Below are positions 2,034 to 59,939 of a stretch of 64,000 nt of DNA, piece by piece. The position numbers were made by a program, and so were the translations under genes. Where the stretch lies: positions 2,142 to 66,141 of IMG/VR virus record IMGVR_UViG_3300029725_000150. One strand, written 5' to 3'. Each line of letters begins with the position of its first letter. Position 1 is the stretch's first letter. The notes under the pieces were generated by a model that worked only from the letters and a program-made list of their open reading frames with translations, searched no databases and was not told the origin of the DNA. This stretch comes from a virus.

Positions 2034-3083
2034 ATGACATTAGAAGAAAGATATAATAGGAAAAGAACCCCGGTCGTTCAAAGGCGGGAATTGTCCACTA
2101 CGCCATTGGTTGAGCCGGAGGTTGCCGGAAGCCAGAACCCTATAGCTCCAACCGTGGATAATACGGATGAGACCGCTCCGCAAGCGAGCGTTGTCGAGCC
2201 TCAAATGAACGATTACCAATGGAACCAAAGGCTTTATGAGACGCTCTTTCAAAAGCCGATAAGCCAAGAGGAGGAGGAGAGAAGAAAACGGGCCGCTTCC
2301 GTAGCTGCTGGAATCGGACATCTAGGCAATGTGTTGTCTTCCTTCTCCAATTTGGCATTCGCGGGAGAGGCACCTTCGCAGAAATTACCTACCGTAGCTG
2401 ATCCTAAACTACAATCCTATTCTGATAGGCTGGAGGCTATCAGGCAAAGATACGGGGCCGGGTATCTGGCCGCAAGGCAAAACGATATGAATAATTATCA
2501 AAGGGCGTTATCTCTGTATAGACAGGATCAAGCTAGAAAAGCCCAGAATGATTTGGCAAAAGCCAAGATAGCGCAAAGTGCCGCTCAATTCGCAATAAAG
2601 AATGACAGGGAGGAGCGGAAGATGAAACAGGATGCCGCATATAAAGAGAGAGAGTTGGGTATAAGGCAATCCAATCTCCGTAGTCTTGAGCAATATCGTA
2701 CCGCTAAAGCTAATGGATCTGGGGCGGATAAGTCTATTGACATCATCGGCAGAAACGGTAAACGTTTCACTTTGTCCGGTAAGGATAAAGATGGGGTTAT
2801 CGCTTATATGTATAAGAGGATGTTGGAGTATGCGGAGGAAAATAAAGATAAAAACAAGAGCGTATCGGATGTAACGTGGCAGCTTGGTGAAGGTGGAGAC
2901 CAAAAGACCAAACAAGCCGCTATTGTCATGAGTAACATCCAGAATTTCCCGGAATTATACGATGAGTTTGATAGGGTGATCGGATCGGGAGGTTCTTCTA
3001 GTAAGGGCAAGCATATCCCTTTAAACGATGAAGGAGGAACAGAAAATACAAACGAAAAATACAGCTGGATTCATGGATTCTAA
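2034..3083 (+). CDS. hypothetical protein (349 aa), co-transcribed with the giant protein gene
   Basis: Long ORF 6 nt after the previous gene; its 3' end overlaps the start of the giant ORF. Charged, coiled-coil-like central region. Confidence 0.5.
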   Translation: MTLEERYNRKRTPVVQRRELSTTPLVEPEVAGSQNPIAPTVDNTDETAPQASVVEPQMNDYQWNQRLYETLFQKPISQEEEERRKRAASVAAGIGHLGNVLSSFSNLAFAGEAPSQKLPTVADPKLQSYSDRLEAIRQRYGAGYLAARQNDMNNYQRALSLYRQDQARKAQNDLAKAKIAQSAAQFAIKNDREERKMKQDAAYKERELGIRQSNLRSLEQYRTAKANGSGADKSIDIIGRNGKRFTLSGKDKDGVIAYMYKRMLEYAEENKDKNKSVSDVTWQLGEGGDQKTKQAAIVMSNIQNFPELYDEFDRVIGSGGSSSKGKHIPLNDEGGTENTNEKYSWIHGF

Positions 3084-6000
3084 TGTAAAACATTTATATG
3101 ATGCTATGATTAGCCAAGGATATACGGGACTTGGCGATTTCTCTAATTTTGAGGGTAAGATGAAAGACTCTGGAAAGAGGAGAATGGTTTATGATTATTT
3201 GATACAAGATGATTATTTCTCCGAGATAGGCGATTTCTCCAAATTCGAGAGTGCCCTAGGCTATTCGCCCGCAGAGAGGAAAGATTACGTTTCTCAATCA
3301 AGCGTTAATCCTGCACCTATCGCTTTAAGACAAGAGGTTGACGTGCCTATGAAGGATCAATCGGAATACGTTAATCCGTGGACGAACTCACCTGATTACA
3401 ATTTTGAGTCCTTGCGTAAAAAAGGAAAGATTGAGACCGCGACTCCTCCACCTCCTACGGAGTATGAGAAGGATTCTTCTTTAATGAATACTTGGGCTGG
3501 AGACGCCATACAGAAACTTAACGCAGGAGGTGCCGATCTTGGTGCCGGTATCTTTGGGGTCTTGGATAAGGCGGCTAAAGGGTTGGAATCCGCAACGGGA
3601 GGACTGATCCCACGTGGCGGGGCATTCAAGGATATCTCAGATAGATTCAAGGCTGATGCGGAGTTTTCCCGGGCAAGGTCAAACAGATACAATGGCAAGG
3701 ATTTCACCGATCTTTGGAAAGAAGGGAATTATATGGGTGCCATAGGTGATATAGCCTTGCAAGGCGTAGAGTCGCTTCCGATGTCAATCGGGGCCATGGC
3801 CGCTACAATGGCCGGAGCTCCAGCGGCCGGACTCGCTGGTATAGGGTCAATAGTGGCTAGCCAGAAATATGATGATCTCGATCAGAATAACCCAAACATG
3901 GGAGAGTTCGCAAAGGTATCTAACGCTATTCTTACTGGTACGGCAGAATCCTTGTCTGAGATGCTGGGCGCTGGCGTATCCAAGGCTTGGATGTCAACCT
4001 TATTCAAGACGTTAGGAAAGGAAAAGGCGCAAGAGGCTATCAAACGTGGCATAATGGGTAAGATGCAAGAGTTCTATAAAAAATTCGGTATGTTTTTCGA
4101 GCCTGTAAATGAAGGTATCGAAGAGGTGTCTTCCACGCTAGCGGAGAATATAACGGATAAGATAACTGGTGCGGATCCGGAAAGGGATTTGACCGATGGT
4201 GTATTGCAGAGTTTTGTCTATGGTATGGGAGGCGGCGCTTATTTTACTGGAGCCGGAGCGTTGGCTAAAGGTGCGCAATACGTAGCGGATAAAATAGGAG
4301 GCAAACAGGCTCAGCAGCCTATCACCGATTCCAATGTAACAGATCAAGGCGTTGGAACTCCTCCTCTATTAACTAAGTCTAGGTTTGCCGAGGCAGAGGA
4401 AGAAGGTCGAAATATGACTGATCCGGGCAATATACGAACGGCGAGCAAAAAGATGGAAGAGACAAGGCTTTCCCTATCTGAAATGGTACCGGGTTTGGCT
4501 AGTACGATAGAAAGCTATGTGGATGATAAAGCTAGCGAGGCTCAAGTGATGAGCCTTCTTGATGGGGTTAATGCGGATGCCCGTCCGTTAGCCGAGGAAT
4601 TCTACGCTGATTATCTCAGGATATCCGGTTTGCAGGATCGTATAGGCGAGGAAATAGACAATGAGGTTGAAACTTACGTTGCCAATAATATTACTCCTTA
4701 TGTTACCACGAATCCTGATGGTCAGTCTATCGTTACCACGGCTACGCTTAGCGAGGGAAATGTGGAAAGACCTGTGTACGTTAGGAGTATCGAGGGAGAT
4801 AAGGCCGTTATTTCCGATAACGGACAGGATCGGATGGTCTCGGTGAAAAGGTTGAGCGATATAGTAGAGCAAGATGCCGGTTATATGAGACGGACCTATG
4901 AGGATCAATTATTGGCTACCCGCCAGTCCGAGCTTGACATGACCATGCATCATAATCCCAAGACGCAATTACCAAAGCCGGGGTTGATCGTATGGAACGG
5001 GGATAATGCGTTTATCCTTCAAGGACAAGATGAGAACGGTGATTGGATCGCTCAACCTGCGGCTTATGATAGAGAAACCGGGCAGGTGACAGCCAAGAAT
5101 GGCTCTTCTCCAGCAATGCCTATAACAGAGAATGAGATTCTTGATCTTCAAGATGCCATATATGACGCTCAACAAGTTAATGTGGTGTCGCCAAAGGATG
5201 ATAATGTTGCAAGTGCTGATGCCGAGATAACCTCTGCACCTCCCGTGGAAGATGCGATCAACCAGCCAACGAGTGAGATTGAGACGGAAAGTGCCATTGA
5301 TCAGATAGCACAACCTAGCAATGTGGAGAATCCTTCCATGGTCATGCGAGAAGATGGTACACCCGATTTCGTATCATCAGGAACGGATATGGCCTTGGAT
5401 TTCCTCTATGATAAATATGGCGATAAGATGCCAAGGAAGATCGAGGTGACGAGAAAGTCTTTCGATGAAAGCCTTAAAAAAGCGTCTGATGCCTTGGGAA
5501 AGGCGCAAGAGGCATACGATGATGCCCCTATCGGAAAAGAGGATAAGCCTGAGGCCGCATTGATAAAAGCCCGACAAGAATATGAGGCGATCAAGGTCGA
5601 GGCTGATTTCTGGGCTAATCTTGATGATGATATCAAGGAGGCCAGCAAGAAGCCGGGTGATGTCATAGCGAAGGAGATCTCCGTGATAGGTGATCCTATG
5701 AGCGGAGAGGAGCTTGCGGCCATGATGCTGGCTAATGGGGCGATCAAATTGACACGTGACAGTTACAAGAAAGAGACCGGTGCCGGGAATAATGAGACAG
5801 CGAGGATGTTCGGACTGTTCGCCTCTCCGGAGAAAGGCGGTGTTAATATAGAGAGGGCGGGTGAGATATTGGAGCTTGCCGATAGGGAGAATGGCACTAA
5901 CTTCTTCGATGAGAACGATACGAACGCCGGAAGGGACGCTATCATAGAGGTCTTGTCTTCCTCTCATACACGTGGAGACTTGATCGATTATGTCAAGCGG

Positions 6001-9000
6001 AACCGTGAGGCGATCGCTGAGCGTGAGAGACAGGCCGAGTACAACGCTTACGCTGAGTGGTGCGAGGAGAATTATCATATGTCCCCGGAAGAATACGAGG
6101 CGTATGAGGAAAGCATGGTACGTGATTTCTCGGAGAAACAATTGACTGATGAGGAGCGAGGCGAGCTTGATTCGCAAATCGTGGATGAAATACAGGCCAT
6201 AATTGACGAACAAAATGAAATAGACGCTATCTTAGCGCAAAATAAACCGATAGAAAATGAAAACATTGAAGGAAATGACGAAAGCGGAGGCGATGGCTTA
6301 CGCGAGGGAGGCGGCGAGGTACTGCCAAGAGAACAACTTGATCAGACCGGGCGAGCTGGAGAAACTGAGGCAAGAGAACAAGTTGGCACCGGTATTGATC
6401 GCACGGATGGAGCTACACAAGAAGGCGCATCCATTATAGATAAAATACGATATAGTTCTCCTGTAGAGATAACAGGAAATGAGATATCTCCAAGCGAAGA
6501 CTTAAGAGAGTATAAGAAAAATGCTTTGGAGTATGGGAAATCTCTAAGGGGTGAATATATAAACAAGGATTCCGGTAAAACAATATTCTTGGGAAAGAAC
6601 GCTATCAAGGAAGTATTGCACCATGATTATAAGAATGTGGAACAACTTCAAAGTATAGCGGCTATTCCTAAGATAATAGAGAACGCTATTTTTGTGACAT
6701 CACAAGAAAATACGGACTCAAAGGTAAATGCGGAGTCTTTTGATTATTATGTATGCGGATTAAGGATCGGAGACGTTGATTATACGGTTCGTGCGGTTTT
6801 CGTAAAACCTAAAGATGGTGATAGGTATTATGATCATAAATTGACTAGAATAGAAAAAGGGAAATTGATTGATTCACTATTCGGGACAACTCCCGGTTTT
6901 AATCAAACGACTTCCCTCGTTTCTGGAAGCGAAGATAAGAAATTGATTTCTATCTTGCAAGATAAAGTGTTTGAAAAAGATGCGAAAGAGGCTAAATCTT
7001 TTGTCGCTCCTTCCCCAAAGGAGAATGAGAACCCCTTGGACTATGCCGAGCGCATAGTGGAGGCTAAGAGATTGCACGATGAGGAGCTAAAGGTTGACAC
7101 TAACCCTTCCGAGGCGCAGAAAGAGGCCGGGAATTACAAGAAAGGTCATGTAAAGATAAACGGTTTCGATGTTTCCATAGAGCAGCCCGCCGGTTCCGTC
7201 CGTTCCGGTAAGGACGCTAGCGGAAAGGAGTGGTCGCAGGCTATGAATAACACTTACGGTTACATTCGAGGTACTAAAGGTGTGGATGGTGATCATATAG
7301 ACGTATTCCTAGGTCCGGATATGAATAGTGACATGGTGTATGTCGTGGATCAGGTGAATACTGATGGCTCATTCGATGAGCATAAGGTTATGATGGGATT
7401 CTCTTCCTTGGAAGACGCTAGGTCCGCTTACTTGTCAAACTATGAGGAAGGTTGGCAAGGGTTAGGCAACATTACCGGGGTAGCGTTGGATGAGTTCAAG
7501 AAATGGATTGATTCTTCAATCCGGAAGACCAAACCGTTTTCAGACTATAAAATGACCAAAGAAAACCCTAACTTATCATTACGGGATATCGTTGAGTCCA
7601 GTGGAGGTCATATAGTTGTAGGAAATCCGGGACTTACTGTATATAAAAAAGAAACTGTAGCGAAAAAAACTAACGGAAACAAACTTGTTTCCGAAGAGCG
7701 TTATGAGGAACTTAAAAAACGAATGCGGGCAAAACTCGGCGGTCAAATGAATATGGGTATTGATCCTGAGATACTGGCGATAGGTACTGAAATGGCAGTT
7801 TATCATATAGAGAAAGGATTGCGTAAGTTCTCTGATTACTCAAAGGCAATGATCGATGATCTAGGTGACGCTATACGACCGTATCTTAAATCATTCTACA
7901 ATGGAGCGAGGGATTTGCCGGAAGTAGGAGATAACGGATGGGATAAGGATATGACCACTTATGAGGATGTCCGTTCGTTTGATGTAGCTAATTTTGATAA
8001 GCCTGTCCCGGATATAATGGATGCCGCTGAGACCGTGATTAAAGAGACTGAGATTGCCGTACAAGCGAGTGCCGCAGAGAAAAAAATAAAAAATAGCCGG
8101 AAAAAGCGAACGGACAACAAGGACAAACCATTACCTTTGTATGGTAACGATTTATTCACTCCTAATAATATTAAAGACAATGAGCAAGGAAATTCAAGAG
8201 CGGATCAAGGCGTGGGAAGAAAAGCACGGGAAGAGGATCGAGGATCTGAACGCGGAGGAGACCGTGGAGGCGTGCATGGAAGTGATGTGCTTGACACGGA
8301 GCGAGGCCGAGGAATACCTATCAGCGACAGCGACAAGCGGCCTGTTGTAAGGAATCAAAACAATTTCAGCTTCCCGGAGAAAGGGATTGAACTTCCTTCC
8401 GGTGATATATCCAAGCTAAAAGCCAATATTGAGGCGATAGAAACGCTGAAAGACGTAGAGGACGGCCAAGGAAAACCTACCCCGGAACAACAAGCCAAGA
8501 TGTCAAGGTACGTTGGATGGGGAGGTTTGGCCGAAGCCTTGAACGAAGCCAAATACAACGCACGTGACAACAATTGGACTAAGGATCGAAATTGGAATGA
8601 TAAGTATCTACGTTATTATGAGAAACTAAAATCCTTATTAAGTAAAGAAGAGTTCGACAGTGCCGTCCGTTCCACGACAACCTCTCATTATACCCCGTCC
8701 GAGGTCGTGGAAAGCTTATGGGGAATAACGGAGAAACTTGGATTCAAGGGTGGCAATATCAGTGAACCCGCTATGGGTATAGGCAACATAATCGGTATGA
8801 TGCCTAGGTCTATATCTGAAAACTCAAGTATAAGTGGGTTCGAGATAGATAGTTTATCCGGTCGTATGGCAAAGGCTTTATATCCTGACGCTAATATAAA
8901 GGTGCAGGGATATGAGAAAGCGTTTTCTCCAAACTCGAAAGACTTAGTTATCACCAACGTCCCATTCGGGAAAAACGCTCCATATGATAAGGTTTTAGAT

Positions 9001-12000
9001 AAGCAATTCAGGAAAAAACTTGGTTCCTCTTATAATCTCCATAATTATTTTATCCTAAAGGGGCTTCTGGAATTGAAAGAAGGTGGTCTCGGCGTATTCG
9101 TCACGTCCTCGGCTACGATGGATGGGGCCGATAGTAAGTTCCGTGAGTACGTGAGTGGGAACGGTTATGATCTGGTCGGAGCTATCCGATTGCCTAATGA
9201 CGCTTTCCAGAAAGGGGCCGGCACGAGTGTCACGGCCGACATCGTTATATTCCGTAAAAGAAAGTATGGGGAACCTTCGAATGGGATAGGGTTCGCTACT
9301 ACAACGCAAATAGGTGAAGGAACTTATATGGAGGACGGGGATAAAAGGAGCAAGCCTATCATGGTTAACGAGTATTTCTCCAATCATCCCGATATGATGT
9401 TAGGTGATATGATGACCGCTTATGACGCTGGTAGCGGAGGTCTATATAGTGGAGCGTCCCAGACATTGAAAGCCAAACCCGGGGCCGATTTAAGCAAGGA
9501 GCTATTTAACGCTATTGATAACTTACCAAAGAATATCCTATCAGGTGTTGTAGAGACTAAAGGGCCGGAGGTTGTGGGTGACTCCACTTTGAAAGATGGT
9601 ACTATTACCGTCCAGAATGGCAATGTCTTTGTTTTAGATGGAGAGTCGTTAAAACCGATTAAGGCAAATCCTACGTTCGTTCATAATGGTAAGACCCGGA
9701 AAATAGCGGATGCGGTAAATGATTACAATGATATAAAGAAAAATCTATACGATCTTATCCATGATGAGCAAACAAAGGGTGTGGACCCCGAGCCCGCGAG
9801 GAAAAGGCTAAACAAAGTATATGATGCTTTCGTGTCCAAATATGGGACACTTAACAGGAACAAGGCTTTGGACGATATTTTCGCCGAGGATGTTGAGCAT
9901 GGATTACCCTTCTCTTTGGAAACCGTTAGAAGGGTACCTTCCACGACCGGAAAATCTATGGTATGGGAAGTCTCGAAAGCGGATGGTATCTTGAATAAGC
10001 GTGTAAGTTATCCATTCGAGCTACCGACAAAAGCGGATAATGTCTTGGATGCCGTCAATATAAGCAAGTCATATAAAGGTAATATTGATATACCTTATAT
10101 CTCGGAGATAACGGGTATGGATGAGGTGAACGTGACAAACGAGATACTAGAGAAGGGAATTGCTTATAGGGATCCTGTTACCGGAAATATAATAGATAAG
10201 AGCGAATATCTCTCTGGAAACGTAAAAGATAAGTTGGTAGAGGCTAAGGCGGCCTTGGAAGATCATCCGGAGTTTCAAAAAAACGTGGATGACTTGGAAG
10301 CCGTACAGCCAGAACGTATACCCTATGGTGAGATAAGTTATCGACTGGGGACTACATGGATCCCGTCTGAGTTTATAAATAATTTCGCTGATAATGTACT
10401 GGGTATATCTTACGCTAACGCTAATTTTATCCCGGAGATCGGTGAGTATATTCTTGATAAGAGGGCGTTCATAACCGATTACGCTAAAGCCGGTCAATTC
10501 AAGACTGAGAGAATGGACGCTATAGACGTGTTCAAGGCCGCTCTTAACCAACGTAAACCCAAGGTTTATGACGAGATTAAATATTATGAGGACGGTAAGC
10601 AGAAAACGAGAAGGGTCGTAAACGAGCAGGAGACACAGGCCGTTGCCGAGAAAATATCCGACATGTCCGATAAGTTTGTGGAGTATATTGATTCTAAAAC
10701 GATGTTCCATGGTCGTATTGAGGACGTGTATAATGATAAATATAACAACTATGTACTAAAAAAGTATGACAAACCGGTTTTTGAGCATTATCCTAACGCT
10801 AATAAGAATATAACGCTTAGGGATCACCAGAGCAAGGCGGTGCAACGTTGTCTATCCGAGAGCACGTTACTCGCTCACCAAGTCGGTACGGGAAAGACCT
10901 TTACCATGATTACGTCCGCTATGGAAATGAGACGGCTAGGTATAGCGAAGAAACCCATGATCGTTGTCCAAAACGCTACCCTAGAGGATTTCGTCCGTGA
11001 CTTTTATAAACTGTATCCTTCCGCTAAGATTCTATCTCCGACAAAGGAGGAGCGTAATGCCGATAATAGGACAAGGCTGTTCAATCTTATAGCTACCGGA
11101 GATTTTGACGCTATCGTTGTCCCACAGTCATTCATGGCGTTTATCCCGGATAGCGAGGAAAGGAAAAAGGCATATATCCAAAAGCGTATAGATGATTTTG
11201 AGGAGGCTGTCGATCGCATAGAAGACAAGGCTTTACAGGAGAGATTGAAAAGGGAGGCCAAAAGTATGCGTGATTCTCTGGAAGGTATAAAGAAAGGGAA
11301 AAACGTAAAGGGCAAGGCAAAGACTGCGGAGACTATCACGGCCAAGACGGAGCGTATTCTTGACAGGCGGACTGATAATGTCATGACGTTTGAGCAAATG
11401 GGTGTTGACGCTTTGTTCATCGACGAGGCGCATAATTATAAGAAGATCGGGTTTCCAAGCAAGATGTCGAACGTTAAAGGTATCGATACGAGCGCGTCAC
11501 AAAGAGCTAATAGTATGTTGCTAAAAGCCCAATGGATATCTGAGAATAATGGTGGTCGAAACGTGGTTCTGGCAACCGGTACCCCTATCACTAATACAAT
11601 GGCAGAGGTCTGGACTATGATGAATTTCGTGGCACCCGATATCCTAGACGCATATAATATCAATAGCTTTGACGAGTTCGCTACCACTTTTGGAACGGTT
11701 GAGCCATCATTGGAGTTTACCGCTACCGGTAACTTTAAGATAGCCGAGAGGTTCAAGAGCTATACGAATGTCCCGGAGCTTATAAAGGCGTTCAGGAGCC
11801 ATACGGACGTTGTCTTGACTGAGGATGTCAAGGAGTTCAAGGAAGACAAGAATATCCCTAAGTTGAAAGACAATAAGATGACCAATGTCATTGTCGAGAA
11901 GAACGAGGACTTGGAGGATGTCATGCAAACCCTTATCAAGGAATTAGAGGATTATAACAAATTGACAGGAAAAGAGAAGAAGGATAAGAGCGCACTACCC

Positions 12001-15000
12001 TTGGTCGTGTTCAGCAAGGCTAAACAGGCTGCGATTGACCTTCGCTTGCTTAATCCTACATTTCCCGACAATCCTGATAGCAAGACAAACAAGGTGGTCG
12101 ATAACGTGTTGAGATTATATAAGGAGAGCGATAAGGACAAAGGCACGCAACTTATATTCTGTGATAGTTATCAATCCCCTTCTGAAACTCCAAAAATGGA
12201 TTTATTCGATGTCGATTTATCTGTTCCTCAGTTTAATTTGTACAACGATATAAAGGAAAAGCTTATCAAGGGAGGTATTCCGTCTAATCAGATAGCTATC
12301 GTTGGCAATTATGAGGGAGAAAGGAGAAACGCCTTGTTCGATAAGGTCCGTAATGGGGATGTGCGCATTCTTATTGGAAGCACGGAGAAAATGGGAGTGG
12401 GTGTCAACGTGCAAGATCGTCTATTCGCCCTGCATCATATTGACGCTCCAATCAGGCCTATGGATTTTGAGCAACGCAACGGTCGTATCTTACGACAAGG
12501 AAACTTATACGCTACATGGGATAAACCGGTGAACATCGTCACATATGGCGTTAAAGGTACCCTTGACGCTACCGCCTATGACAGGCTTCGTATAAAACAA
12601 AACTTCATCAACCAGATGATGAAAGGCGATATATCGTCTCGTGTCATGGAGGAGCAAGACGATAGTGATCCGTCTGGAATGACCTTTAGTGAGATGGCGG
12701 CGACGTTATCCGGAGATAAGACCGCCCAACTACTGTTTGTGGCACAGAACAAGTTAAAGAAACTGCAAAACTCCAAGAGGAGCGATCTTAACAGTAAGTC
12801 TTCCATGCGTGACTCTATATCTAATTCCAAACTTAGGATACAAGAATACAACAGCCGGAAGGATATCATGGAAAGGAACGCCAATATCGTAAAAGAGAAC
12901 TTCCCTGATGGGGTTGAGTCCGTGACTGTTAAAGGCAATACTTTCAGCGATGGTATATCGAATGAGCTTACGCCCATTATTGATGATTACTATGATAGAT
13001 ATACGCTTGACAGAAACACCCCTCCTCTGAAAATCAGTCTCAATGGAGGAAAAGGCGAGGCAATCGTGCATTTCAATGAAGGAATGATGGTCTATAGCTT
13101 ATATTTAGGAAAGGAAAAACTGGTTGAGAATCGTGATTTTAGCGGCGGCAAGGGTTTGATGGCTAGCATTGACAGGCAGTTGGGGATTCCCGCTAAATCC
13201 GTCTCAGATATAGCCGCTAAAATAAAGGCAGAGGAAAACAAGATAGCGGGATTAGAGGAAGCCGTTAAGAAACCGTGGGGAAAAGAGGATGAACTTAATG
13301 CGGCTCAGGCAGAGGTTAATGATCTGCAGAGACAATTAGTTGAAAAAGCTAAAGCTGAGGATATTCAGTTAGAATCAACTCTTGACGTTGATGGTACGTT
13401 GGTAAAAGAGGAAGGAGAGACTCGATTTCGATTCATGGGAGTAGATACAACTAATAATCAGGATAATGTAAGTTCTATTGAATCCTCAATCAACGATTGG
13501 TCAAACAAGCTTAATACCCCTGTCAGGGTAATCCATGACGTGGACGATATAAACGATACGGATGAGAATATGTTGGCCCGTAAGAGAGATTCCAAAGGCT
13601 GGTATGACACTTCTACTGGGGAGATAGTCATAGTATCACCTAATTCCACGTCCGTAGGTGACGCTCAAAGGACTTTCCTCCATGAGGTGGTAGGGCATCA
13701 TGGGTTACGTGAGCTATTCGGGGATGATTTCGATACTTTCCTTGATAACGTGTATCGGAACGCCAACGAGGATATCCGGAAAAATATCATTGACCGGACT
13801 AAAGGCAATCCTCTTAACTTGCGTGAGGCTACAGAGGAATACATCGCTGAATTAGCGGAACGTGGTTTCGATAACAAGGCCGAGCGTTCGTTATGGGAAA
13901 AGATCAAGGACTCTTTTCTTGATATGTTGAGAAAGGCCGGTATTAGCCTTGATTTCAAGTTATCGGATAATGACCTTCGTTATATCCTCTGGAGAAGCTA
14001 TAAGAACTTGGAGCAAGGAAACTTGATGGATGTAGCCGAGGATATCGTGATGAGAAATAGATTAAGTCTTAACAATATAAATTTGAACGAAAATGGATCA
14101 ATCGCAAGAGATATTGAACCTGAAAAAGGAAAACAACCTTCTGAAACAAAAGGTACTGGAAGGGAACTCGAGACAATCGATGGCGTTGATGAGAACGGAA
14201 ACGAAAGTGAACGAGACCATATCGACAAACCAAGGGGAGTTGAAAACGCTATTGACGGAACTGAAAACGCAACTGACCGAAATGGAAAAAAGACTGACGG
14301 CCAAGTTGACAACGATGGAGACCAACTTGGCGGAGGAGATACGGGCGATAGGAACGGAAGTGTCCGGGATGGAATCGGCGGTGAGCGGACTGTCATCGGA
14401 CGTGCAGGATCTGAAAACAAGGGTAGAGGCGTTGGAGAAAGCGTAAGGGAAAAGACGGATGATTTCGCTTTCGCAGAGAAAACAATCCGTTTTAGGGAGA
14501 ACGCACGGAATGAGTCGGTATTGTTCGCTGATAATGATATCCAAGTAGTAGAGAAACAGGTAGGTTCCGCCAAAGATCAATATGAGCGTACCCTATCTAC
14601 ATCATCCTATCAATTTCAGGAGGCGTTTCAGGATTCTATGCTAGGGCTTAAAACATTGCAGGATGCCGTGGCAAAGGCAACGAGGAGTCGTATATTGGAT
14701 TATGAGAACGCTTATATGGCCGAGAATGCCCTTTCCTCTGTTAATGAAGCTGAGTTCAACGCTTATAGGAAAGCGGCTTTCGAGCCTATCTTAAAAGCGA
14801 TCTCACGTTTGGAAAAGATGGGATCCTCCATTGATGAGATAAGGGATTACCTTATAACCAAGCATGGTATTGAGCGTAACAGGGAAATGGCCGTTAAACG
14901 AGCGTTGTCACAAAACGCGGAAACATATAAATCCCTGCTTGACGAGTATATCGGGAGAAGGAATGAGATACGTGAGAACGGCGGGTCTTGGGAAGAGCAG

Positions 15001-17556
15001 CAATCAGAAATGGATAGGCTTGCCGAGGAATACGGAGCTAATCTTTCTGATGATTTCAGCGGATTCACGTCCATGTATCCTAACGAGGATAACACGGGGT
15101 ATGATCCGGATTCCGCAAGGAGATACGTATTGGATTACGAGTCAAGATATGATACATCGGAATTATCGGCCTCTGTCAAAAGAGCCACTGACGCTATATT
15201 GGCAAAGCAACGGGATAGCGGGCTTATGAGCCAAAATACGTTTGATTCGATCAGCGATATGTATCAGTTCTATGTGCCTTTGCGTGGATGGGAGGAAACT
15301 ACGGCAGATGAGGTTTACGCTTATCTTACATCCGAAAGCCAGACGTTCAACGCCCCTATAAAGACTGTCGTTGGGCGAAAGAGCAAGGCTGACGATCCTA
15401 TAGCGACGATCGCTAATATGGCAGAGAGTGGAATCATGCAAGGGAATAGGAACTTGATGAAGCAAAAGTTTTTGACAATGGTGCAAAACCATAAGACGGA
15501 TCTCGTGAGCGTAAGCGAAATGTGGGTTCGTCTTGACGAGGCTTCCGGTGAGTGGATCGCCGTTTTCCCGGATATACCATCTAACGCCAATCCGGAACAG
15601 GTGGAGTCTATCGTGGAATCTTTCAACAAACGCATGGAGGAGCTATCCAATGAAAAAGGATCTAATGTCAGGCGTTCAAGGGATGCTATAGGGATACCTT
15701 ACAAGATATTGCCAAAGGACTTGAAGGAGCATCAAGTGATCGTAAAGAGAGCTGGCAAAGAATACGTGCTTACCATAAACGGGAACCCAAGGGCCGCTCA
15801 AGCGTTGAACGGGCTTACAAACCCGGATAATACGAAAGGATGGTTCGGTACCTTGGAGAGATACGCCGGATGGCTGAACCGTAACTTGGCGGCTAACTTT
15901 ACGACACGTAACCCGAATTTCATGGTAAGTAACTTCCTCCGTGACGCTCTTTATTCGAATACTACCGTATGGGTCAAGGAAAGTCCTGTTTACGCTTGGA
16001 AGTTCAATAAGAATTTCGCTAAGGTAAACCCGATCAATATGTATCGTCTGGTCAAGGGGTATGAGAACGGTACGTTGGATATGAGCGATCCCTTGAATAA
16101 GGCATACCATGATTTTGTAATGAGAGGAGGAGAGACCGGATACACCAATTTGAGAGACGTGGAAGCCAAGAAGAAGGCGATCCAAAAAGAGCTTCAATAC
16201 TCCAAGCAAAAGGTATCTATCGGAAAGGCTTTGAAAATACTAGGCGAATGGATGGACTTGTTCAATAAGAGCGTCGAGAATTGCGCTAGGTTCGCCGCGT
16301 TCCTTACTTCTAGGGAAATAGGGCGGAGCATGGATAAATCTATTTATGACGCTAAGGAGATATCCGTAAACTTCAATAAGAAAGGGGCGGGTTCAAAATT
16401 CTTGAATACTGAGGGGCAGACCAAGATAGGTAACGCTAGCGCTTTCACGTCCGGATTGTCAAGATCCATGTATGTATTTTGGAACGCTGGTGTACAAGGT
16501 ATGTATAATTTCGGAAGGCTGGCCAAGGATAATCCCAAGAAATTCTTGGGGTTAGCGTCCTCTTTCTATTTACTTGGCACTATCATGCCTATGATCGCTG
16601 CCGTTTTTGGGGATGATGAAGATGATGATTACTACGATCTTCCGGAATACGTGAGACGTAATAATATCTGTTTCCGTAACGGTGGAGGAAATTGGATTAC
16701 AATTCCTATGCCCATAGAGTTAAGGGCTATATATGGACTAGGAGAAATGTCTTCTGGAATAGTTTCCGGAAAGGAGAAGTATACCGATAAAAAGATGGCC
16801 ATGAAGATAGCGGAGCAAATGTCACAGGTTCTTCCTTTGGACATGATGGAGGGAGGTGGAGGATTCTCCGCTTTCGTCCCAAGCTCGGTAAAGCCATTGA
16901 TTGAGGCCGGAGATAACAAGGATTGGACAGGTTTGCCTTTATATAAGGATAACGACTTCAACAAGGGTATGCCGGAATGGACAAAGGCTTTTAAGAGCGT
17001 GGATCCCGCTATATTGGCAATGACTAAATATGCCAATGAACTGACCGGAGGAGATAAATACACTACAGGTACCGTTAACCTAAACCCAGCCATTATAGAA
17101 CATATATTGGACGGCTATTTCGGAGGTATTGAGGCTACGCGTTCCCAGATGGTCAAATCCGCTGAAACCGCTTGGGGTAGTCGTGATTTTGACTGGAGGA
17201 ATATCCCTGTAGGGAACCGTCTTATAAAAAGTGGTGATGAGCGGACGAAAAAGAAAGCCATAGATAACGCTTATTATGAGAATTTGGAAGAAATGGATAA
17301 GATCGGACAAAGATTGAGAGGATATCGTAAAGAATTGTCTAATCCACAGAACGATAGTTTTGATATAGCAGAGTATCAGAAAAAATTGAATGATCTTATG
17401 ATGAGCGATGAATATCGTGGATATGTAGAGTTTAATAATCTTAACAAATTGTATCAATCAATGGGTGAGTATTTGAAGAAGGTAGATGATGAAAGATTGG
17501 AAATGGAGTTATACGATTTGAAAGCAATGATGAATGAGATAGCTAATGGTAAATAG
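3028..17556 (+). CDS. giant multidomain polyvalent protein (4842 aa): pyrophosphatase-like + N6-adenine DNA methyltransferase + SNF2 helicase + HExxH zincin-like domain; likely virion-injected anti-restriction/anti-defence protein
   Basis: A 14.5-kb uninterrupted frame. Methyltransferase motif I EPAMGIGNIIG, motif IV ITNVPFG, and ADIVIFRKRK after it. SNF2 helicase motifs LAHQVGTGKTFTM (Walker A), LFIDEAHNYKK (DEAH-type box) and GSTEKMGVGVNVQ...FEQRNGRILRQGN (motifs V and VI). YGYIRGTKGVDGDHIDVF resembles the family I pyrophosphatase signature. HEVVGHHG is an HExxH motif. The start may instead be the ATG at 3073 (MDSNVKHL...). Confidence 0.85.
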   Translation: MKEEQKIQTKNTAGFMDSNVKHLYDAMISQGYTGLGDFSNFEGKMKDSGKRRMVYDYLIQDDYFSEIGDFSKFESALGYSPAERKDYVSQSSVNPAPIALRQEVDVPMKDQSEYVNPWTNSPDYNFESLRKKGKIETATPPPPTEYEKDSSLMNTWAGDAIQKLNAGGADLGAGIFGVLDKAAKGLESATGGLIPRGGAFKDISDRFKADAEFSRARSNRYNGKDFTDLWKEGNYMGAIGDIALQGVESLPMSIGAMAATMAGAPAAGLAGIGSIVASQKYDDLDQNNPNMGEFAKVSNAILTGTAESLSEMLGAGVSKAWMSTLFKTLGKEKAQEAIKRGIMGKMQEFYKKFGMFFEPVNEGIEEVSSTLAENITDKITGADPERDLTDGVLQSFVYGMGGGAYFTGAGALAKGAQYVADKIGGKQAQQPITDSNVTDQGVGTPPLLTKSRFAEAEEEGRNMTDPGNIRTASKKMEETRLSLSEMVPGLASTIESYVDDKASEAQVMSLLDGVNADARPLAEEFYADYLRISGLQDRIGEEIDNEVETYVANNITPYVTTNPDGQSIVTTATLSEGNVERPVYVRSIEGDKAVISDNGQDRMVSVKRLSDIVEQDAGYMRRTYEDQLLATRQSELDMTMHHNPKTQLPKPGLIVWNGDNAFILQGQDENGDWIAQPAAYDRETGQVTAKNGSSPAMPITENEILDLQDAIYDAQQVNVVSPKDDNVASADAEITSAPPVEDAINQPTSEIETESAIDQIAQPSNVENPSMVMREDGTPDFVSSGTDMALDFLYDKYGDKMPRKIEVTRKSFDESLKKASDALGKAQEAYDDAPIGKEDKPEAALIKARQEYEAIKVEADFWANLDDDIKEASKKPGDVIAKEISVIGDPMSGEELAAMMLANGAIKLTRDSYKKETGAGNNETARMFGLFASPEKGGVNIERAGEILELADRENGTNFFDENDTNAGRDAIIEVLSSSHTRGDLIDYVKRNREAIAERERQAEYNAYAEWCEENYHMSPEEYEAYEESMVRDFSEKQLTDEERGELDSQIVDEIQAIIDEQNEIDAILAQNKPIENENIEGNDESGGDGLREGGGEVLPREQLDQTGRAGETEAREQVGTGIDRTDGATQEGASIIDKIRYSSPVEITGNEISPSEDLREYKKNALEYGKSLRGEYINKDSGKTIFLGKNAIKEVLHHDYKNVEQLQSIAAIPKIIENAIFVTSQENTDSKVNAESFDYYVCGLRIGDVDYTVRAVFVKPKDGDRYYDHKLTRIEKGKLIDSLFGTTPGFNQTTSLVSGSEDKKLISILQDKVFEKDAKEAKSFVAPSPKENENPLDYAERIVEAKRLHDEELKVDTNPSEAQKEAGNYKKGHVKINGFDVSIEQPAGSVRSGKDASGKEWSQAMNNTYGYIRGTKGVDGDHIDVFLGPDMNSDMVYVVDQVNTDGSFDEHKVMMGFSSLEDARSAYLSNYEEGWQGLGNITGVALDEFKKWIDSSIRKTKPFSDYKMTKENPNLSLRDIVESSGGHIVVGNPGLTVYKKETVAKKTNGNKLVSEERYEELKKRMRAKLGGQMNMGIDPEILAIGTEMAVYHIEKGLRKFSDYSKAMIDDLGDAIRPYLKSFYNGARDLPEVGDNGWDKDMTTYEDVRSFDVANFDKPVPDIMDAAETVIKETEIAVQASAAEKKIKNSRKKRTDNKDKPLPLYGNDLFTPNNIKDNEQGNSRADQGVGRKAREEDRGSERGGDRGGVHGSDVLDTERGRGIPISDSDKRPVVRNQNNFSFPEKGIELPSGDISKLKANIEAIETLKDVEDGQGKPTPEQQAKMSRYVGWGGLAEALNEAKYNARDNNWTKDRNWNDKYLRYYEKLKSLLSKEEFDSAVRSTTTSHYTPSEVVESLWGITEKLGFKGGNISEPAMGIGNIIGMMPRSISENSSISGFEIDSLSGRMAKALYPDANIKVQGYEKAFSPNSKDLVITNVPFGKNAPYDKVLDKQFRKKLGSSYNLHNYFILKGLLELKEGGLGVFVTSSATMDGADSKFREYVSGNGYDLVGAIRLPNDAFQKGAGTSVTADIVIFRKRKYGEPSNGIGFATTTQIGEGTYMEDGDKRSKPIMVNEYFSNHPDMMLGDMMTAYDAGSGGLYSGASQTLKAKPGADLSKELFNAIDNLPKNILSGVVETKGPEVVGDSTLKDGTITVQNGNVFVLDGESLKPIKANPTFVHNGKTRKIADAVNDYNDIKKNLYDLIHDEQTKGVDPEPARKRLNKVYDAFVSKYGTLNRNKALDDIFAEDVEHGLPFSLETVRRVPSTTGKSMVWEVSKADGILNKRVSYPFELPTKADNVLDAVNISKSYKGNIDIPYISEITGMDEVNVTNEILEKGIAYRDPVTGNIIDKSEYLSGNVKDKLVEAKAALEDHPEFQKNVDDLEAVQPERIPYGEISYRLGTTWIPSEFINNFADNVLGISYANANFIPEIGEYILDKRAFITDYAKAGQFKTERMDAIDVFKAALNQRKPKVYDEIKYYEDGKQKTRRVVNEQETQAVAEKISDMSDKFVEYIDSKTMFHGRIEDVYNDKYNNYVLKKYDKPVFEHYPNANKNITLRDHQSKAVQRCLSESTLLAHQVGTGKTFTMITSAMEMRRLGIAKKPMIVVQNATLEDFVRDFYKLYPSAKILSPTKEERNADNRTRLFNLIATGDFDAIVVPQSFMAFIPDSEERKKAYIQKRIDDFEEAVDRIEDKALQERLKREAKSMRDSLEGIKKGKNVKGKAKTAETITAKTERILDRRTDNVMTFEQMGVDALFIDEAHNYKKIGFPSKMSNVKGIDTSASQRANSMLLKAQWISENNGGRNVVLATGTPITNTMAEVWTMMNFVAPDILDAYNINSFDEFATTFGTVEPSLEFTATGNFKIAERFKSYTNVPELIKAFRSHTDVVLTEDVKEFKEDKNIPKLKDNKMTNVIVEKNEDLEDVMQTLIKELEDYNKLTGKEKKDKSALPLVVFSKAKQAAIDLRLLNPTFPDNPDSKTNKVVDNVLRLYKESDKDKGTQLIFCDSYQSPSETPKMDLFDVDLSVPQFNLYNDIKEKLIKGGIPSNQIAIVGNYEGERRNALFDKVRNGDVRILIGSTEKMGVGVNVQDRLFALHHIDAPIRPMDFEQRNGRILRQGNLYATWDKPVNIVTYGVKGTLDATAYDRLRIKQNFINQMMKGDISSRVMEEQDDSDPSGMTFSEMAATLSGDKTAQLLFVAQNKLKKLQNSKRSDLNSKSSMRDSISNSKLRIQEYNSRKDIMERNANIVKENFPDGVESVTVKGNTFSDGISNELTPIIDDYYDRYTLDRNTPPLKISLNGGKGEAIVHFNEGMMVYSLYLGKEKLVENRDFSGGKGLMASIDRQLGIPAKSVSDIAAKIKAEENKIAGLEEAVKKPWGKEDELNAAQAEVNDLQRQLVEKAKAEDIQLESTLDVDGTLVKEEGETRFRFMGVDTTNNQDNVSSIESSINDWSNKLNTPVRVIHDVDDINDTDENMLARKRDSKGWYDTSTGEIVIVSPNSTSVGDAQRTFLHEVVGHHGLRELFGDDFDTFLDNVYRNANEDIRKNIIDRTKGNPLNLREATEEYIAELAERGFDNKAERSLWEKIKDSFLDMLRKAGISLDFKLSDNDLRYILWRSYKNLEQGNLMDVAEDIVMRNRLSLNNINLNENGSIARDIEPEKGKQPSETKGTGRELETIDGVDENGNESERDHIDKPRGVENAIDGTENATDRNGKKTDGQVDNDGDQLGGGDTGDRNGSVRDGIGGERTVIGRAGSENKGRGVGESVREKTDDFAFAEKTIRFRENARNESVLFADNDIQVVEKQVGSAKDQYERTLSTSSYQFQEAFQDSMLGLKTLQDAVAKATRSRILDYENAYMAENALSSVNEAEFNAYRKAAFEPILKAISRLEKMGSSIDEIRDYLITKHGIERNREMAVKRALSQNAETYKSLLDEYIGRRNEIRENGGSWEEQQSEMDRLAEEYGANLSDDFSGFTSMYPNEDNTGYDPDSARRYVLDYESRYDTSELSASVKRATDAILAKQRDSGLMSQNTFDSISDMYQFYVPLRGWEETTADEVYAYLTSESQTFNAPIKTVVGRKSKADDPIATIANMAESGIMQGNRNLMKQKFLTMVQNHKTDLVSVSEMWVRLDEASGEWIAVFPDIPSNANPEQVESIVESFNKRMEELSNEKGSNVRRSRDAIGIPYKILPKDLKEHQVIVKRAGKEYVLTINGNPRAAQALNGLTNPDNTKGWFGTLERYAGWLNRNLAANFTTRNPNFMVSNFLRDALYSNTTVWVKESPVYAWKFNKNFAKVNPINMYRLVKGYENGTLDMSDPLNKAYHDFVMRGGETGYTNLRDVEAKKKAIQKELQYSKQKVSIGKALKILGEWMDLFNKSVENCARFAAFLTSREIGRSMDKSIYDAKEISVNFNKKGAGSKFLNTEGQTKIGNASAFTSGLSRSMYVFWNAGVQGMYNFGRLAKDNPKKFLGLASSFYLLGTIMPMIAAVFGDDEDDDYYDLPEYVRRNNICFRNGGGNWITIPMPIELRAIYGLGEMSSGIVSGKEKYTDKKMAMKIAEQMSQVLPLDMMEGGGGFSAFVPSSVKPLIEAGDNKDWTGLPLYKDNDFNKGMPEWTKAFKSVDPAILAMTKYANELTGGDKYTTGTVNLNPAIIEHILDGYFGGIEATRSQMVKSAETAWGSRDFDWRNIPVGNRLIKSGDERTKKKAIDNAYYENLEEMDKIGQRLRGYRKELSNPQNDSFDIAEYQKKLNDLMMSDEYRGYVEFNNLNKLYQSMGEYLKKVDDERLEMELYDLKAMMNEIANGK
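7138..7515 (+). other. inorganic-pyrophosphatase-like domain inside the giant protein
   Basis: TYGYIRGTKGVDGDHIDVFLGP versus the family I pyrophosphatase core NYGYI.HT...DGDP.DVLV; the three Asp residues are conserved. Confidence 0.4.
8683..9264 (+). other. gamma-class N6-adenine DNA methyltransferase domain inside the giant protein
   Basis: EPAMGIGNI (AdoMet-binding motif I), NVPFG (NPPY/F-type catalytic motif), and ADIVIFRKRK at the end of the domain. Confidence 0.7.
10822..12620 (+). other. SNF2/SF2 helicase domain inside the giant protein
   Basis: DHQSKAV...GTGKTFTM, FIDEAH, and the C-terminal helicase motif QRNGRILRQGN. Confidence 0.75.
13599..13740 (+). other. HExxH zincin-like metallopeptidase motif region inside the giant protein
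   Basis: GWYDTSTGEIVIVSP...TFLHEVVGHHGLRELFGDD. Confidence 0.4.
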
Positions 17557-17564
17557 GTGAAGTG

Positions 17565-17593
17565 GCGGATGGCGTTGGTGCCATCCGCTTTAT
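17565..17593 (+). terminator. rho-independent terminator after the giant gene
   Basis: GCGGATGGC-gttggt-GCCATCCGC followed by TTTAT, 9 nt after the stop codon. Confidence 0.6.
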
Positions 17594-17597
17594 AGTA

Positions 17598-18008
17598 TTA
17601 ATCTTCATTTACATTGAATAGTGCTACGATTATAGATATGAATGTAATTAGTACTAATATGTTTAGACTGATTGCTAATATCCATTGTAATACACTGAAA
17701 TCGCCATTTATGCTATACGGTAATTTTAAGGAAGACCAACAACCGAAGTATAATATAAATGGTATTGATGCGTATTTAGCTATTTTGCATCCTTTAGATA
17801 CTAATATTAAAGGATAAGCTATAAAAGTAGCTACACTTCCGATCATAGTAGTCATGAGTCCACCGGCTATTAATATATATACAATAAAGAGCATCCATCC
17901 CACGCCCATAATGTAGGGTGTCAAATAATAGAATAATAACCATAGCAAATATGCTGTTATGTGACTTAGCAATATGGATCCTATTGTTCTTAAAAATGTA
18001 ATAATCAT
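17598..18008 (-). CDS. multi-pass membrane protein (136 aa) in a 27%-GC island
   Basis: Four hydrophobic helices. Its start overlaps the stop of the upstream gene (ATGA). GC content is far below that of the flanking DNA. Confidence 0.5.
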   Translation of the reverse strand: MIITFLRTIGSILLSHITAYLLWLLFYYLTPYIMGVGWMLFIVYILIAGGLMTTMIGSVATFIAYPLILVSKGCKIAKYASIPFILYFGCWSSLKLPYSINGDFSVLQWILAISLNILVLITFISIIVALFNVNED

Positions 18009-19015
18009 AATATTGTCTTGTCTTTATAAAATGAAAAATATGCTTTAGTTTTATTTTGTACTATACGCCAATATGTAAGAGATCTTTTAATGTCTGTTTT
18101 TGAAATGTCTATAACAGGTTCTTCTGCTGGATTTAACAAGGTGTATATAATACCATTTGGCAAGAATGTTTTGAAACTTAGTTCTTGTCTGAAATAGGAT
18201 ATCATTTTCCTTATTCTATCTTCGGATTCTAGTCTGTCATTCCATGATAATTTAAAATATTCAACTAATGGCGTTTTTATACGACTAATAAATCTATAGT
18301 CATATGTTTTATCATATTCTAATAGCGTATATACTAAAGATGCTCTATCTATAATAGCCCATGCGATGTTGTTATTAAGTATTTTGAATGTATTTAAGTC
18401 GTTTTCTGACACTAAAAAAAGGCAGTCTGTTTTCAATATTTCATTTGCGCAAAGTAACATTTTATCAAATCTATTCCATCCATAATCTTTTTTTACAAAA
18501 GGTTCATATTGAATGCCTACAGGGTTTATTTCTTTATCTGCTAACCTAAAATATATATCATATTTTTTTCTATGTATTTTTAAAATTCCTTTATTACATT
18601 TTGGACAAACCCAAAAATCTTTTATTATATCCTTATATATAAGATTTGTGCTACCGCACTCTATACATGAGTCTACAGTGCTGCATTTAATTAGTTCTTT
18701 AAATTTAACGTATAGATTTATTTTATTAATTAATGATTGTGCATCTTGCTTGTCTTTATTGAATTTGAATATCTTTCTATTCAGTCTCTCTAATTTCTTA
18801 TTTTCTATGCTTATTGTGTTTTTTATATCGTTAATGTTTATGCCTTTTTGTATAGGTACAAATGTTTTGCAATTTATGCACCAAGCGTGCCTTATTTCTG
18901 GGTATGGCAAGTCTTCCAACCCATAAATCCTAGGGTATATGTATTTATAATTAGTTGGATTATATTCTTGTTCATAATCACATGTATCACATTTAGCATA
19001 ATTATATATTGGCAT
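18005..19015 (-). CDS. Cys-rich protein with two zinc-ribbon motifs (336 aa) in a 27%-GC island
   Basis: CDTCDY...CINC and CIECGS...CPKC motifs. Translationally coupled to the downstream membrane protein. Confidence 0.55.
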   Translation of the reverse strand: MPIYNYAKCDTCDYEQEYNPTNYKYIYPRIYGLEDLPYPEIRHAWCINCKTFVPIQKGININDIKNTISIENKKLERLNRKIFKFNKDKQDAQSLINKINLYVKFKELIKCSTVDSCIECGSTNLIYKDIIKDFWVCPKCNKGILKIHRKKYDIYFRLADKEINPVGIQYEPFVKKDYGWNRFDKMLLCANEILKTDCLFLVSENDLNTFKILNNNIAWAIIDRASLVYTLLEYDKTYDYRFISRIKTPLVEYFKLSWNDRLESEDRIRKMISYFRQELSFKTFLPNGIIYTLLNPAEEPVIDISKTDIKRSLTYWRIVQNKTKAYFSFYKDKTIL

Positions 19016-59859: not shown

Positions 59860-59939
59860 ATCCTCACGGACGGAGACCTGCTTTGTAAAAATTGTAACTT
59901 TGATTTTCTGATTGAATAAGCACCCCTAGGGGTGAAACG

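Follow-up and report, generated by a model that had tools for sequence, protein, structure and literature searches.

What is the product of an unbroken 14.5-kb gene in a viral genome, and what could a protein of this size do for the virus that carries it? The question is raised by the IMG/VR virus record IMGVR_UViG_3300029725_000150; positions 2,142 to 66,141 of this record, a stretch of 64,000 nucleotides (nt), were analysed and are called the window below. The gene in question is:

3028-17556, + strand: giant polyvalent protein gene, 4842 amino acids (aa), or 4827 aa if the start is Met16 (nt 3073).

The encoded protein is, quite probably, a phage-type polyvalent protein of a temperate Bacteroides phage, that is, an injected carrier with a payload, working by the mechanism proposed below. 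Polyvalent proteins were defined by Iyer, Burroughs, Anand, de Souza and Aravind in 2017 (PMC5512222). As in the phage-type members of that study, one frame, here of 4842 aa, combines LPD3, an inorganic-pyrophosphatase-like domain (InPase), a methylase, an SNF2 helicase, a probably zincin-like HExxxH domain and LPD38; every named domain is already catalogued for this class (PMC5512222). Moreover, InPase and LPD38, along with lysozyme, are found in phage-type polyvalent proteins only (PMC5512222), and the class-specific Pfam domains PF18798 (LPD3), PF18823 (InPase) and PF18857 (LPD38) all score far above their cut-offs in the giant protein.

The frame itself has 4842 codons and zero internal stops over 14.5 kb, according to both the list of open reading frames (ORFs) and the translation. 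A preliminary description of the same DNA had taken it to be real, pointing to an assembly chimera as the danger. Eight metagenome contigs of 20-200 kb encode an identical 4842-aa protein and, as these contigs are independent, this argues against a chimera. One of them, ENA ERZ827117 NODE_70 (156,669 bp), is a longer bacterial contig, and hence the element is a prophage. The start codon is ambiguous: the homologue in Bacteroides fragilis phage BF1-TP2 aligns from Met16 (nt 3073). The overlap with the preceding gene is 56 nt from the start at 3028 and 11 nt from the start at 3073.

Composition analysis divides the protein into four blocks, A to D, separated by three low-complexity linkers rich in Gly, Asp, Glu, Arg and Asn:

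6229-6444, + strand: low-complexity linker 1, aa 1068-1139.
8068-8415, + strand: low-complexity linker 2, aa 1681-1796.
14047-14469, + strand: low-complexity linker 3, aa 3674-3814.

Linker 3 contains a 21-nt tandem repeat (2.3 copies, 14241-14289), a hint that short duplications are how the linkers lengthen.

The preliminary description had proposed that linkers rich in Gly, Asp, Glu and Arg join a pyrophosphatase-like module, an N6-adenine methylase and an SNF2 helicase in a DarB-type polyvalent protein, and all of this agrees with the results on the linkers above and on blocks B and C below. Its further claims, concerning an HExxH motif, the two ends of the protein, the novelty of the combination and the kind of element, needed more or less revision, as described for each of them.

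Block A is the N-terminal block:

3028-6231, + strand: N-terminal block, aa 1-1068, with a Gly/Ala-rich hydrophobic stretch at about aa 254-272.

It has no match in Pfam (including the models derived from the 2017 study), PHROG or the PDB; a PDB search with the profile of the block yielded just three chance-level matches (E 0.23-4.1). When ten tiles of the unannotated regions were compared with Pfam at E<=1, nothing credible was found for aa 1-1160, 3440-3760 and 3700-4550. When 1.84 billion representatives were searched exhaustively with a profile, a family of 592 cluster representatives was recovered, 133 of them at E<=1e-30, in which the block mostly occupies the N-terminal position in proteins of 3000-5600 aa. 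The nine matches of a word-indexed protein search had made the block seem rare, and this impression was overturned by the profile search. Hence the N-terminal ~1070 aa form a conserved module, as yet without a name. Both ends of the protein had initially been described as lacking any recognisable motif; this holds for the first ~1070 aa, whereas the last ~1000 aa are a known LPD38-bearing module.

Block B contains two domains:

6499-6831, + strand: LPD3 domain, aa 1158-1268 (Pfam PF18798, E 8.3e-21).
7111-7509, + strand: InPase, family-I inorganic-pyrophosphatase-like domain, aa 1362-1494 (Pfam PF18823, E 1.2e-59).

The InPase score is 200.5 bits against the cut-off of 26.8, and profile positions 1-134 of 135 are covered. 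The sequence shows the motifs SIEQP, YGYI, DGDHID and FDEHK, and we take the latter two to resemble the DxDxxD and D..K motifs of the Escherichia coli inorganic pyrophosphatase. The same segment matches residues 636-763, at the C-terminal end of a phage portal protein of solved structure (PDB 9b41_L, E 2e-37), thus InPase domains occur inside virions.

Block C is dominated by a methylase-helicase unit of the DarB type, described in the 2017 study as the LPD36-methylase-SNF2 unit with DarB as the archetype (PMC5512222):

8425-9777, + strand: LPD36-like helical domain followed by a gamma-class N6-adenine DNA methyltransferase, aa ~1800-2250.
10810-12627, + strand: SNF2-type superfamily 2 (SF2) helicase/translocase, aa ~2595-3200 (Pfam SNF2-rel_dom and ResIII).

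PHROGs assign aa 1715-3679 to phrog_10089, "DarB-like antirestriction", with the score of 2009. BLASTP yields three segments collinear with DarB of phage P1 across the methylase and the helicase: aa 1868-2078 against DarB 72-275 (E 8.5e-19, the methylase part), aa 2386-2959 against 614-1212 (E 2e-14), and aa 3115-3253 against 1474-1603 (E 3e-7). The LPD36 model was not matched in the Pfam search of the giant protein. At aa 1830 the GWGG sequence, corresponding to the GxGU motif of LPD36, aligns with GEGG of P1 DarB and GWGA of gp69 of Burkholderia phage JC1. The methylase YTP sequence, motif I (EPAMGIG, aa 1913) and motif IV (NVPF, aa 1977) align with the same two proteins, as do helicase motifs I, II (DEAH), III and VI. 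The helicase motifs GTGKT (aa 2620), DEAH (aa 2799), TGTP and QRNGRILRQG are all present. SNF2-rel_dom scores 35.8 bits (cut-off 24.9) and ResIII 30 bits, while Helicase_C, at 21.7 bits, is below its cut-off of 23.5. The PDB matches of the helicase are the ISWI, Snf2 and INO80 ATPases. NCBIfam yielded only sub-threshold SNF2-type matches for the giant protein, with no "PLxRFG" model among them.

The methylase-helicase segment is found in 141 phage records, including P1 and Bcep22-like Burkholderia, Ralstonia, Klebsiella, Vibrio and Sinorhizobium phages; 59 of these records cover at least 80% of the segment. The region also matches the newer precomputed Pfam families PF28553 (WH_1), PF28554 (DUF8437) and PF28555 (Helicase_dom), so that domains have recently been curated on this unit.

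Next comes the domain in which an HExxH motif had been reported:

13447-14067, + strand: zincin-like metallopeptidase-type domain, aa ~3474-3680, with HEVVGH (HExxxH) at aa 3552.

A regular-expression scan of the whole protein finds no strict HExxH; the motif reads HEVVGHH, and what remains of the initial claim is the variant form HExxxH. According to the 2017 study, the polyvalent zincin-like metallopeptidase (MPTase) also has an HEXXXH variant (PMC5512222). Three elements are conserved across 15 homologues of the domain, namely LHExVAHHGLRELFG, a downstream ATEEYLAxLAE helix and DLRYILWRSY; the ATEEY..AE stretch, invariant or nearly so, lies on a helix ~50 residues downstream of HExxxH. The AlphaFold2 (AF2) model, with the confidence score (pLDDT) of 81.6, consists of a helix, three strands, the HExxxH helix and further helices, including a Glu-bearing one, and this predicted order appears to follow the topology given for the polyvalent zincin-like MPTase (PMC5512222). 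In profile comparison, the domain aligns with the HEIIH region of p72 of the Shiga toxin (Stx) phage 933W (probability 93.8%, E 1.7e-7); a weaker alignment is obtained with the HEAFH region of JC1 gp69, and both regions are situated just upstream of an LPD38 block. Pfam, with the MPTase-PolyVal and peptidase models included, is empty for this domain at E<=1, and PDB sequence searches gave no match, whether its single sequence or its profile was used. The domain is probably zincin-like.

In one relative (locus L006, 9800-10100) a frameshift falls within the HExxxH domain, and a ~5600-aa gene is called as two products, 4580 and 1014 aa long. The mutation may be genuine, or the assembly may be wrong here, and a census of domain architectures could be misled by it. 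The L006 LPD38 block was considered as an autonomous gene and rejected as such: the upstream ORF stops within the HExxxH domain, which continues in another frame, so that the split comes from a frameshift and is not natural. The locus was left out of the evidence.

Block D ends the protein:

14470-17553, + strand: C-terminal block, aa 3815-4842, mostly alpha-helical.
16543-16608, + strand: conserved hydrophobic helix, aa 4506-4527, single and family-wide.
16621-17211, + strand: LPD38, aa 4532-4728 (Pfam E 1.9e-37, 129.7 bits, cut-off 27).

It matches phrog_14770 over the whole length and is found in 342 phage records (including those of Stx, Bcep22-like, Ralstonia, Vibrio and Pelagibacter phages), among them 933W p72, annotated as "LPD5 domain-containing protein", and a Pelagibacter podophage. 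At least 212 metagenome homologues carry it behind varied N-terminal payloads (MuF_C, LPD3, PBECR3, RadC, helicase). The alignment of 28 members has more than 100 invariant columns; the motif reading IPLRGF in the family consensus is PLRGW here. The position of LPD38 at the C-terminus after an HExx(x)H domain is collinear with that in 933W p72, JC1 gp69 and BF1-TP2 gp68. The AF2 model of the block has the pLDDT of 69. Neither the profile sequence search nor the fold searches with this model revealed a PDB relative, and no phage core protein was matched; comparison of the N- and C-terminal blocks with T7 gp14, gp15 and gp16 by hhalign gave probabilities below 1%.

How constant is this architecture? 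The best 149 library representatives carrying the N-terminal block were compared with the giant protein by BLASTP. The HExxxH domain was found in 87 of them, the C-terminal block in 84, InPase in 72, LPD3 in 24 and the methylase-helicase unit in 12. Among the cluster representatives listed, at least 12 have the methylase-helicase payload and at least seven the collinear architecture. Six (P0162, P0169, P0185, P0219, P0239 and P0288) have the same order of the N-terminal block, InPase, methylase-helicase, HExxxH domain and C-terminal block, and P0175 follows the same layout but lacks InPase. Hence the combination of domains is not new. The preliminary description regarded the addition of the pyrophosphatase-like module and the HExxH motif as unusual and possibly novel, and this view has to be abandoned, as all parts are standard in the 2017 study (PMC5512222) and the layout recurs in other representatives.

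The pairwise identities are uneven along the protein. P0154 is 93% identical to the giant protein in the N-terminal block, 90% in InPase and 98% over the HExxxH domain and everything after it, and it has LPD13 and ART-PolyVal in place of LPD3 and the methylase-helicase unit. P0153, with a 97% identical N-terminal block, carries PBECR5. Conversely, in P0162, P0185 and P0288 the entire stretch from InPase to HExxxH is 61% identical, the end modules just 30-54%. This fits a constant carrier with an exchangeable payload, recombined at the linkers. P0153 (3353 aa) has neither a BLAST match to the LPD38 block nor a Pfam LPD38 domain in residues 2202-3353, thus the C-terminal "carrier" itself, ~1150 aa in this protein, may also be replaceable.

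Turning to the surroundings, the window contains genes for a virion:

19883-21997, - strand: terminase-like gene.
23715-25316: SU10-MCP-like capsid gene.
30296-33739, + strand: tail-type protein of 1147 aa with a sialate O-acetylesterase-like (SASA) domain (E 8.5e-23) and a weak CBM5/12 match.
39710-41692, - strand: portal gene.

No type IV secretion system, relaxase or ArdC-N was seen in the gene scans of the window. The closest phage record, and the sole close one, is BF1-TP2, a temperate phage of B. fragilis; no paper on it was found in the literature. Its genes gp70, gp69 and gp68 are counterparts, in the same order, of two genes preceding the giant gene and of the giant gene itself. The product of the first of these genes is near-identical on ~50 IMG/VR viral contigs, most of them 30-68 kb, pointing to a common phage of ~60 kb. 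We conclude that the element is a temperate Bacteroides phage of ~60 kb, integrated as a prophage, and not a conjugative element. The preliminary description had left a phage and a conjugative element side by side, and the terminase, portal, SU10-like capsid and tail genes, together with BF1-TP2 as the nearest record, retain the former and remove the latter. The giant gene takes up ~23% of the phage genome.

The two preceding genes are:

1483-2028, + strand: upstream gene 1, 181 aa, with a Gly/Ala-rich hydrophobic N-terminus followed by a helical Q/A/K-rich body.
2034-3083, + strand: upstream gene 2, 349 aa.

Both lie on the strand of the giant gene, with a 5-nt gap between them and with gene 2 overlapping the giant gene; further upstream there is a ~0.5-kb region between divergent genes. 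The arrangement bears out the two preceding genes initially described, and we infer that all three genes are co-transcribed. The product of gene 1 is 41% identical to BF1-TP2 gp70 and weakly matches Pfam T7_gp14 over the full length (E 7.5e-6, 26.4 bits), slightly below the cut-off of 27. Gp70 itself does not match the T7_gp14 model, nor do the Pfam searches of genes at the equivalent upstream positions in BF1-TP2, JC1 and 933W detect it, and hhalign of the gene 1 family against T7 gp14, gp15 and gp16 found nothing (probabilities below 1%). The gene 1 product may be an internal virion or ejection protein. The product of gene 2 is 26% identical to BF1-TP2 gp69, and the Pfam, PHROG and PDB searches with it were all empty; PDB sequence searches with either upstream protein gave zero matches. 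Gene 2 occupies the position of the virion-associated gp68 of JC1 (PMC9144972), and no sequence link between the two was found by BLASTP.

The giant protein can be compared with several proteins studied elsewhere. It resembles the phage-type polyvalent proteins of the 2017 study, in addition to the shared domains, by the location of its gene in a phage with structural genes, in the same order as in BF1-TP2, and differs from them by the N-terminal ~1070 aa. The closest cultured relative is BF1-TP2 gp68 (XPO94596.1, 3633 aa, annotated as "hypothetical protein"). The identity is 71% in the N-terminal block, 93% in InPase, 89% in the HExxxH domain and 32% in the LPD38 C-terminal block; both upstream genes have counterparts, and the phage is temperate. 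However, gp68 is 1200 aa shorter, its payload being ART-PolyVal and PBECR5 rather than LPD3 and the methylase-helicase unit.

Outside Bacteroides, gp69 of JC1 (4515 aa) is also a giant virion-associated protein, of a ~60-kb short-tailed phage of the temperate type. Its methylase-SNF2 unit is 30% identical over ~1700 aa and is followed, in the same order, by an HExxH domain and an LPD38-type C-terminal block; two virion proteins are encoded before it and two reverse-strand genes follow. Gp69 and the products of the two genes just upstream, gp67 and gp68, were detected in purified virions by mass spectrometry (PMC9144972). At the same time, BLASTP detects in gp69 no relative of the Bacteroides N-terminal block, the zincin motif is the canonical HEAFH, the C-terminal block is just 21.6% identical, and the host is a proteobacterium.

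The giant proteins of Stx phages (933W p72, 2806 aa; phi24B gp47, 2811 aa, with LPD5, LPD1, MuF-C and LPD38) share the HExx(x)H domain followed by the LPD38 block, 933W p72 matching our C-terminal block with E 1e-38. They have neither the methylase-helicase unit nor InPase, and their N-terminal domains are different (LPD5, LPD1). Phi24B gp47 is abundant in virions and invisible in cryo-electron microscopy, and its suggested role is that of an encapsidated ejection protein (bioRxiv 10.64898/2026.04.10.717836). Phage PTXU04 requires its 2198-aa LPD38 protein, PTXU04_00025, to infect efficiently (bioRxiv 10.1101/2023.09.18.558157).

P1 DarB (2255 aa) shares the unit of LPD36, gamma-class N6-adenine methylase and SF2 helicase, with all catalytic motifs aligned, although at the identity of only 23-27%. 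It consists of this unit alone, with no InPase, peptidase, LPD38 block or N-terminal block. Virions of P1 contain DarB, which acts in cis to defend the entering DNA against type I restriction (PMC9144972, PMC5512222). Finally, T7 gp14, gp15 and gp16 and the virion RNA polymerase gp50 of N4 are functional analogues, capsid-internal and ejected into the host before the DNA; T7 gp16 and N4 gp50 are large multi-domain proteins, and the latter carries an MPTase. They show no detectable similarity of sequence or fold to the giant protein and its neighbours, the only trace being the sub-threshold T7_gp14 match of the 181-aa protein.

These comparisons suggest the following mechanism. Its first step rests on experiments with homologues, and the other steps on domain homology, the genetics of P1 DarB and proposals from the literature. 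The protein would be made late and packaged inside the capsid, as are its homologues JC1 gp69 and phi24B gp47. At infection it would leave the virion via the tail, ahead of the DNA or together with it. The carrier would be formed by the N-terminal block, the C-terminal LPD38 block, to which the single hydrophobic helix belongs, and the zincin-like domain preceding this block, so that the end modules would mediate incorporation into the virion and ejection or passage through the envelope. The middle would be a swappable payload, represented here by LPD3, the pyrophosphatase-like domain and the DarB-type unit of LPD36, methylase and SNF2 translocase. Like P1 DarB against type I systems, the methylase-translocase would act in cis on the entering DNA, shielding it from host restriction. 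The pyrophosphatase may remove pyrophosphate or some signal derived from nucleotides. The parts would be set free by the HExxxH domain, which would cleave the polyprotein in the three low-complexity linkers or close to them; processing of the polyprotein by the MPTase was proposed in the 2017 study (PMC5512222).

Several points weigh against this scheme. Self-cleavage and the positions of the cleavage sites are purely conjectural. Packaging and the role in infection are extrapolated from homologues outside Bacteroides, the BF1-TP2 homologue being annotated as "hypothetical". As the C-terminal block has no PDB relative, its role as a carrier or conduit is deduced solely from its distribution. 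The Pfam Eco57I methylase match, 25.0 bits, is just under the cut-off of 25.3, and upstream gene 1 is linked to T7 gp14 by a sub-threshold match that profile comparison fails to reproduce. Further, DarB of P1, a myovirus, needs DarA, Hdf and DdrA for packaging (PMC9144972); none of the three was recognised in general scans of the neighbouring genes, with no search aimed at them made. Bcep22-like phages lack DarA, Hdf and DdrA as well (PMC9144972).

Some of the same observations can be arranged differently. The N-terminal and LPD38 blocks may constitute an ejection or carrier scaffold, so far uncharacterised, of many Bacteroidales phages, with effector cassettes (methylase-helicase, ART, PBECR nucleases, LPD13 and others) recombined at the linkers and released by the HExxxH peptidase. 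We put this forward tentatively, as a possibility with somewhat less than even chances; if true, it would be a natural plug-and-play system of protein injection, with payload polymorphism even within one phage species. Alternatively, the giant protein could be an essential ejection protein (ejectosome), which builds, together with the two upstream products, a trans-envelope conduit of a short-tailed phage similar to that of T7 gp14, gp15 and gp16, the enzymes being accessory and escape from restriction no longer the chief task. This is rather unlikely. The N- and C-terminal blocks resemble neither the three T7 proteins nor solved ejection proteins in sequence or fold, and the gp14 match is, as said, below the cut-off (26.4 bits against 27) and missing both in the 41%-identical BF1-TP2 gp70 and in hhalign. 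Still, the ejectosome would explain the gene order (a small protein with a hydrophobic N-terminus, which is the one with the sub-threshold gp14 match, a mid-size one, a giant one), which is the same in JC1, where gp67, gp68 and gp69 are all virion-associated; it agrees with the role proposed for phi24B gp47, the need of PTXU04 for its LPD38 protein in efficient infection and the family-wide hydrophobic helix of the C-terminal block; and close relatives exchange their payloads, which are to this extent dispensable. It overlaps with the injected carrier and payload, which we favour, rather than excludes it.

The remaining explanations concern the nature of the element or of the gene. Hosts may capture polyvalent proteins (PMC5512222), and local matches to DrmD, ZorD and type II methyltransferase models (NCBIfam, PADLOC) might point to a host or prophage defence protein, akin to DISARM DrmD/DrmMI, Zorya ZorD or BREX methylase-helicases and acting on other phages. 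However, these matches score 27-52 bits against the family cut-offs of 610-1500 and reflect generic SNF2 or methylase motifs only, partner genes of DISARM, Zorya or BREX are not found nearby, the gene has structural genes as neighbours, and its homologues are found in virions; defence is thus very unlikely. A polyvalent protein of a conjugative element, moved by type IV secretion with single-stranded DNA, is yet more improbable in a window that has terminase, portal, capsid-like and tail genes and in which no conjugation genes were seen, given that the nearest record is a cultured Bacteroides phage and the relatives reside on IMG/VR viral contigs. As for an artefact, be it an assembly chimera or fused neighbours, giant frames in metagenome assemblies can indeed be chimeric, and the gene in L006 is split by a frameshift. 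But the chances of this are negligible, since, apart from the identical products on eight contigs and the lack of a stop in 14.5 kb, the module order is shared by dozens of representatives of 3000-5600 aa, and cultured phages carry homologous genes of 3633-4515 aa.

The Bacteroides, which dominate among gut bacteria, have an abundance of restriction and other defence systems, whereas little is known of their temperate phages. Under the favoured interpretation, the giant injected polyvalent proteins of Burkholderia, Ralstonia and Stx phages would also be common in gut Bacteroidales phages, with payload sets that vary between otherwise near-identical phages. This may help annotation, as the closest GenBank homologue is still labelled "hypothetical", and may help in predicting the host defences that a given gut phage is able to escape; it could also guide the engineering of protein-delivering phages. 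No new principle is revealed, the protein belonging to a family already described in other phages.

Downstream, the giant gene is separated from a convergent gene by a hairpin:

17564-17589, + strand: intrinsic-terminator-like hairpin between convergent genes, with a 10-bp GC-rich stem and a 6-nt loop, followed by UUUAU (TTTAT in the DNA).

Direct folding gives the free energy of -19.7 kcal/mol and the z-score of -3.5, and none of 200 shuffled sequences folds as well, in agreement with the terminator initially noted after the gene. A simple consensus terminator scan does not list this hairpin. Beyond it there are two reverse-strand genes (17598-19015, - strand; 136 and 336 aa) of markedly low GC content, ~31%, for which the PHROG and Pfam searches were empty. 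JC1 and its relatives also have two unknown reverse-strand genes at this place, but these are much shorter (79 and 98 aa) and lack BLAST similarity to the former.

Among the other genes of the window, the SASA-domain tail-type protein has a parallel in phi24B, the virion of which also carries a NanS-like esterase. Three more features may be listed:

46230-47444, - strand: RtcB-type RNA ligase (phrog_1075, E 7e-139).
55719-57812, - strand: protein of 697 aa with an exonuclease-like N-terminus and an FtsK/SpoIIIE-like ATPase C-terminus (PHROG, E 2.6e-10 and 3e-43, respectively).
59939-60013, - strand: tRNA-Met gene.

The RtcB-type ligase could repair tRNAs cut by host anticodon nucleases. The window also encodes DnaC/DnaD-type helicase loaders and a DNA methylase.

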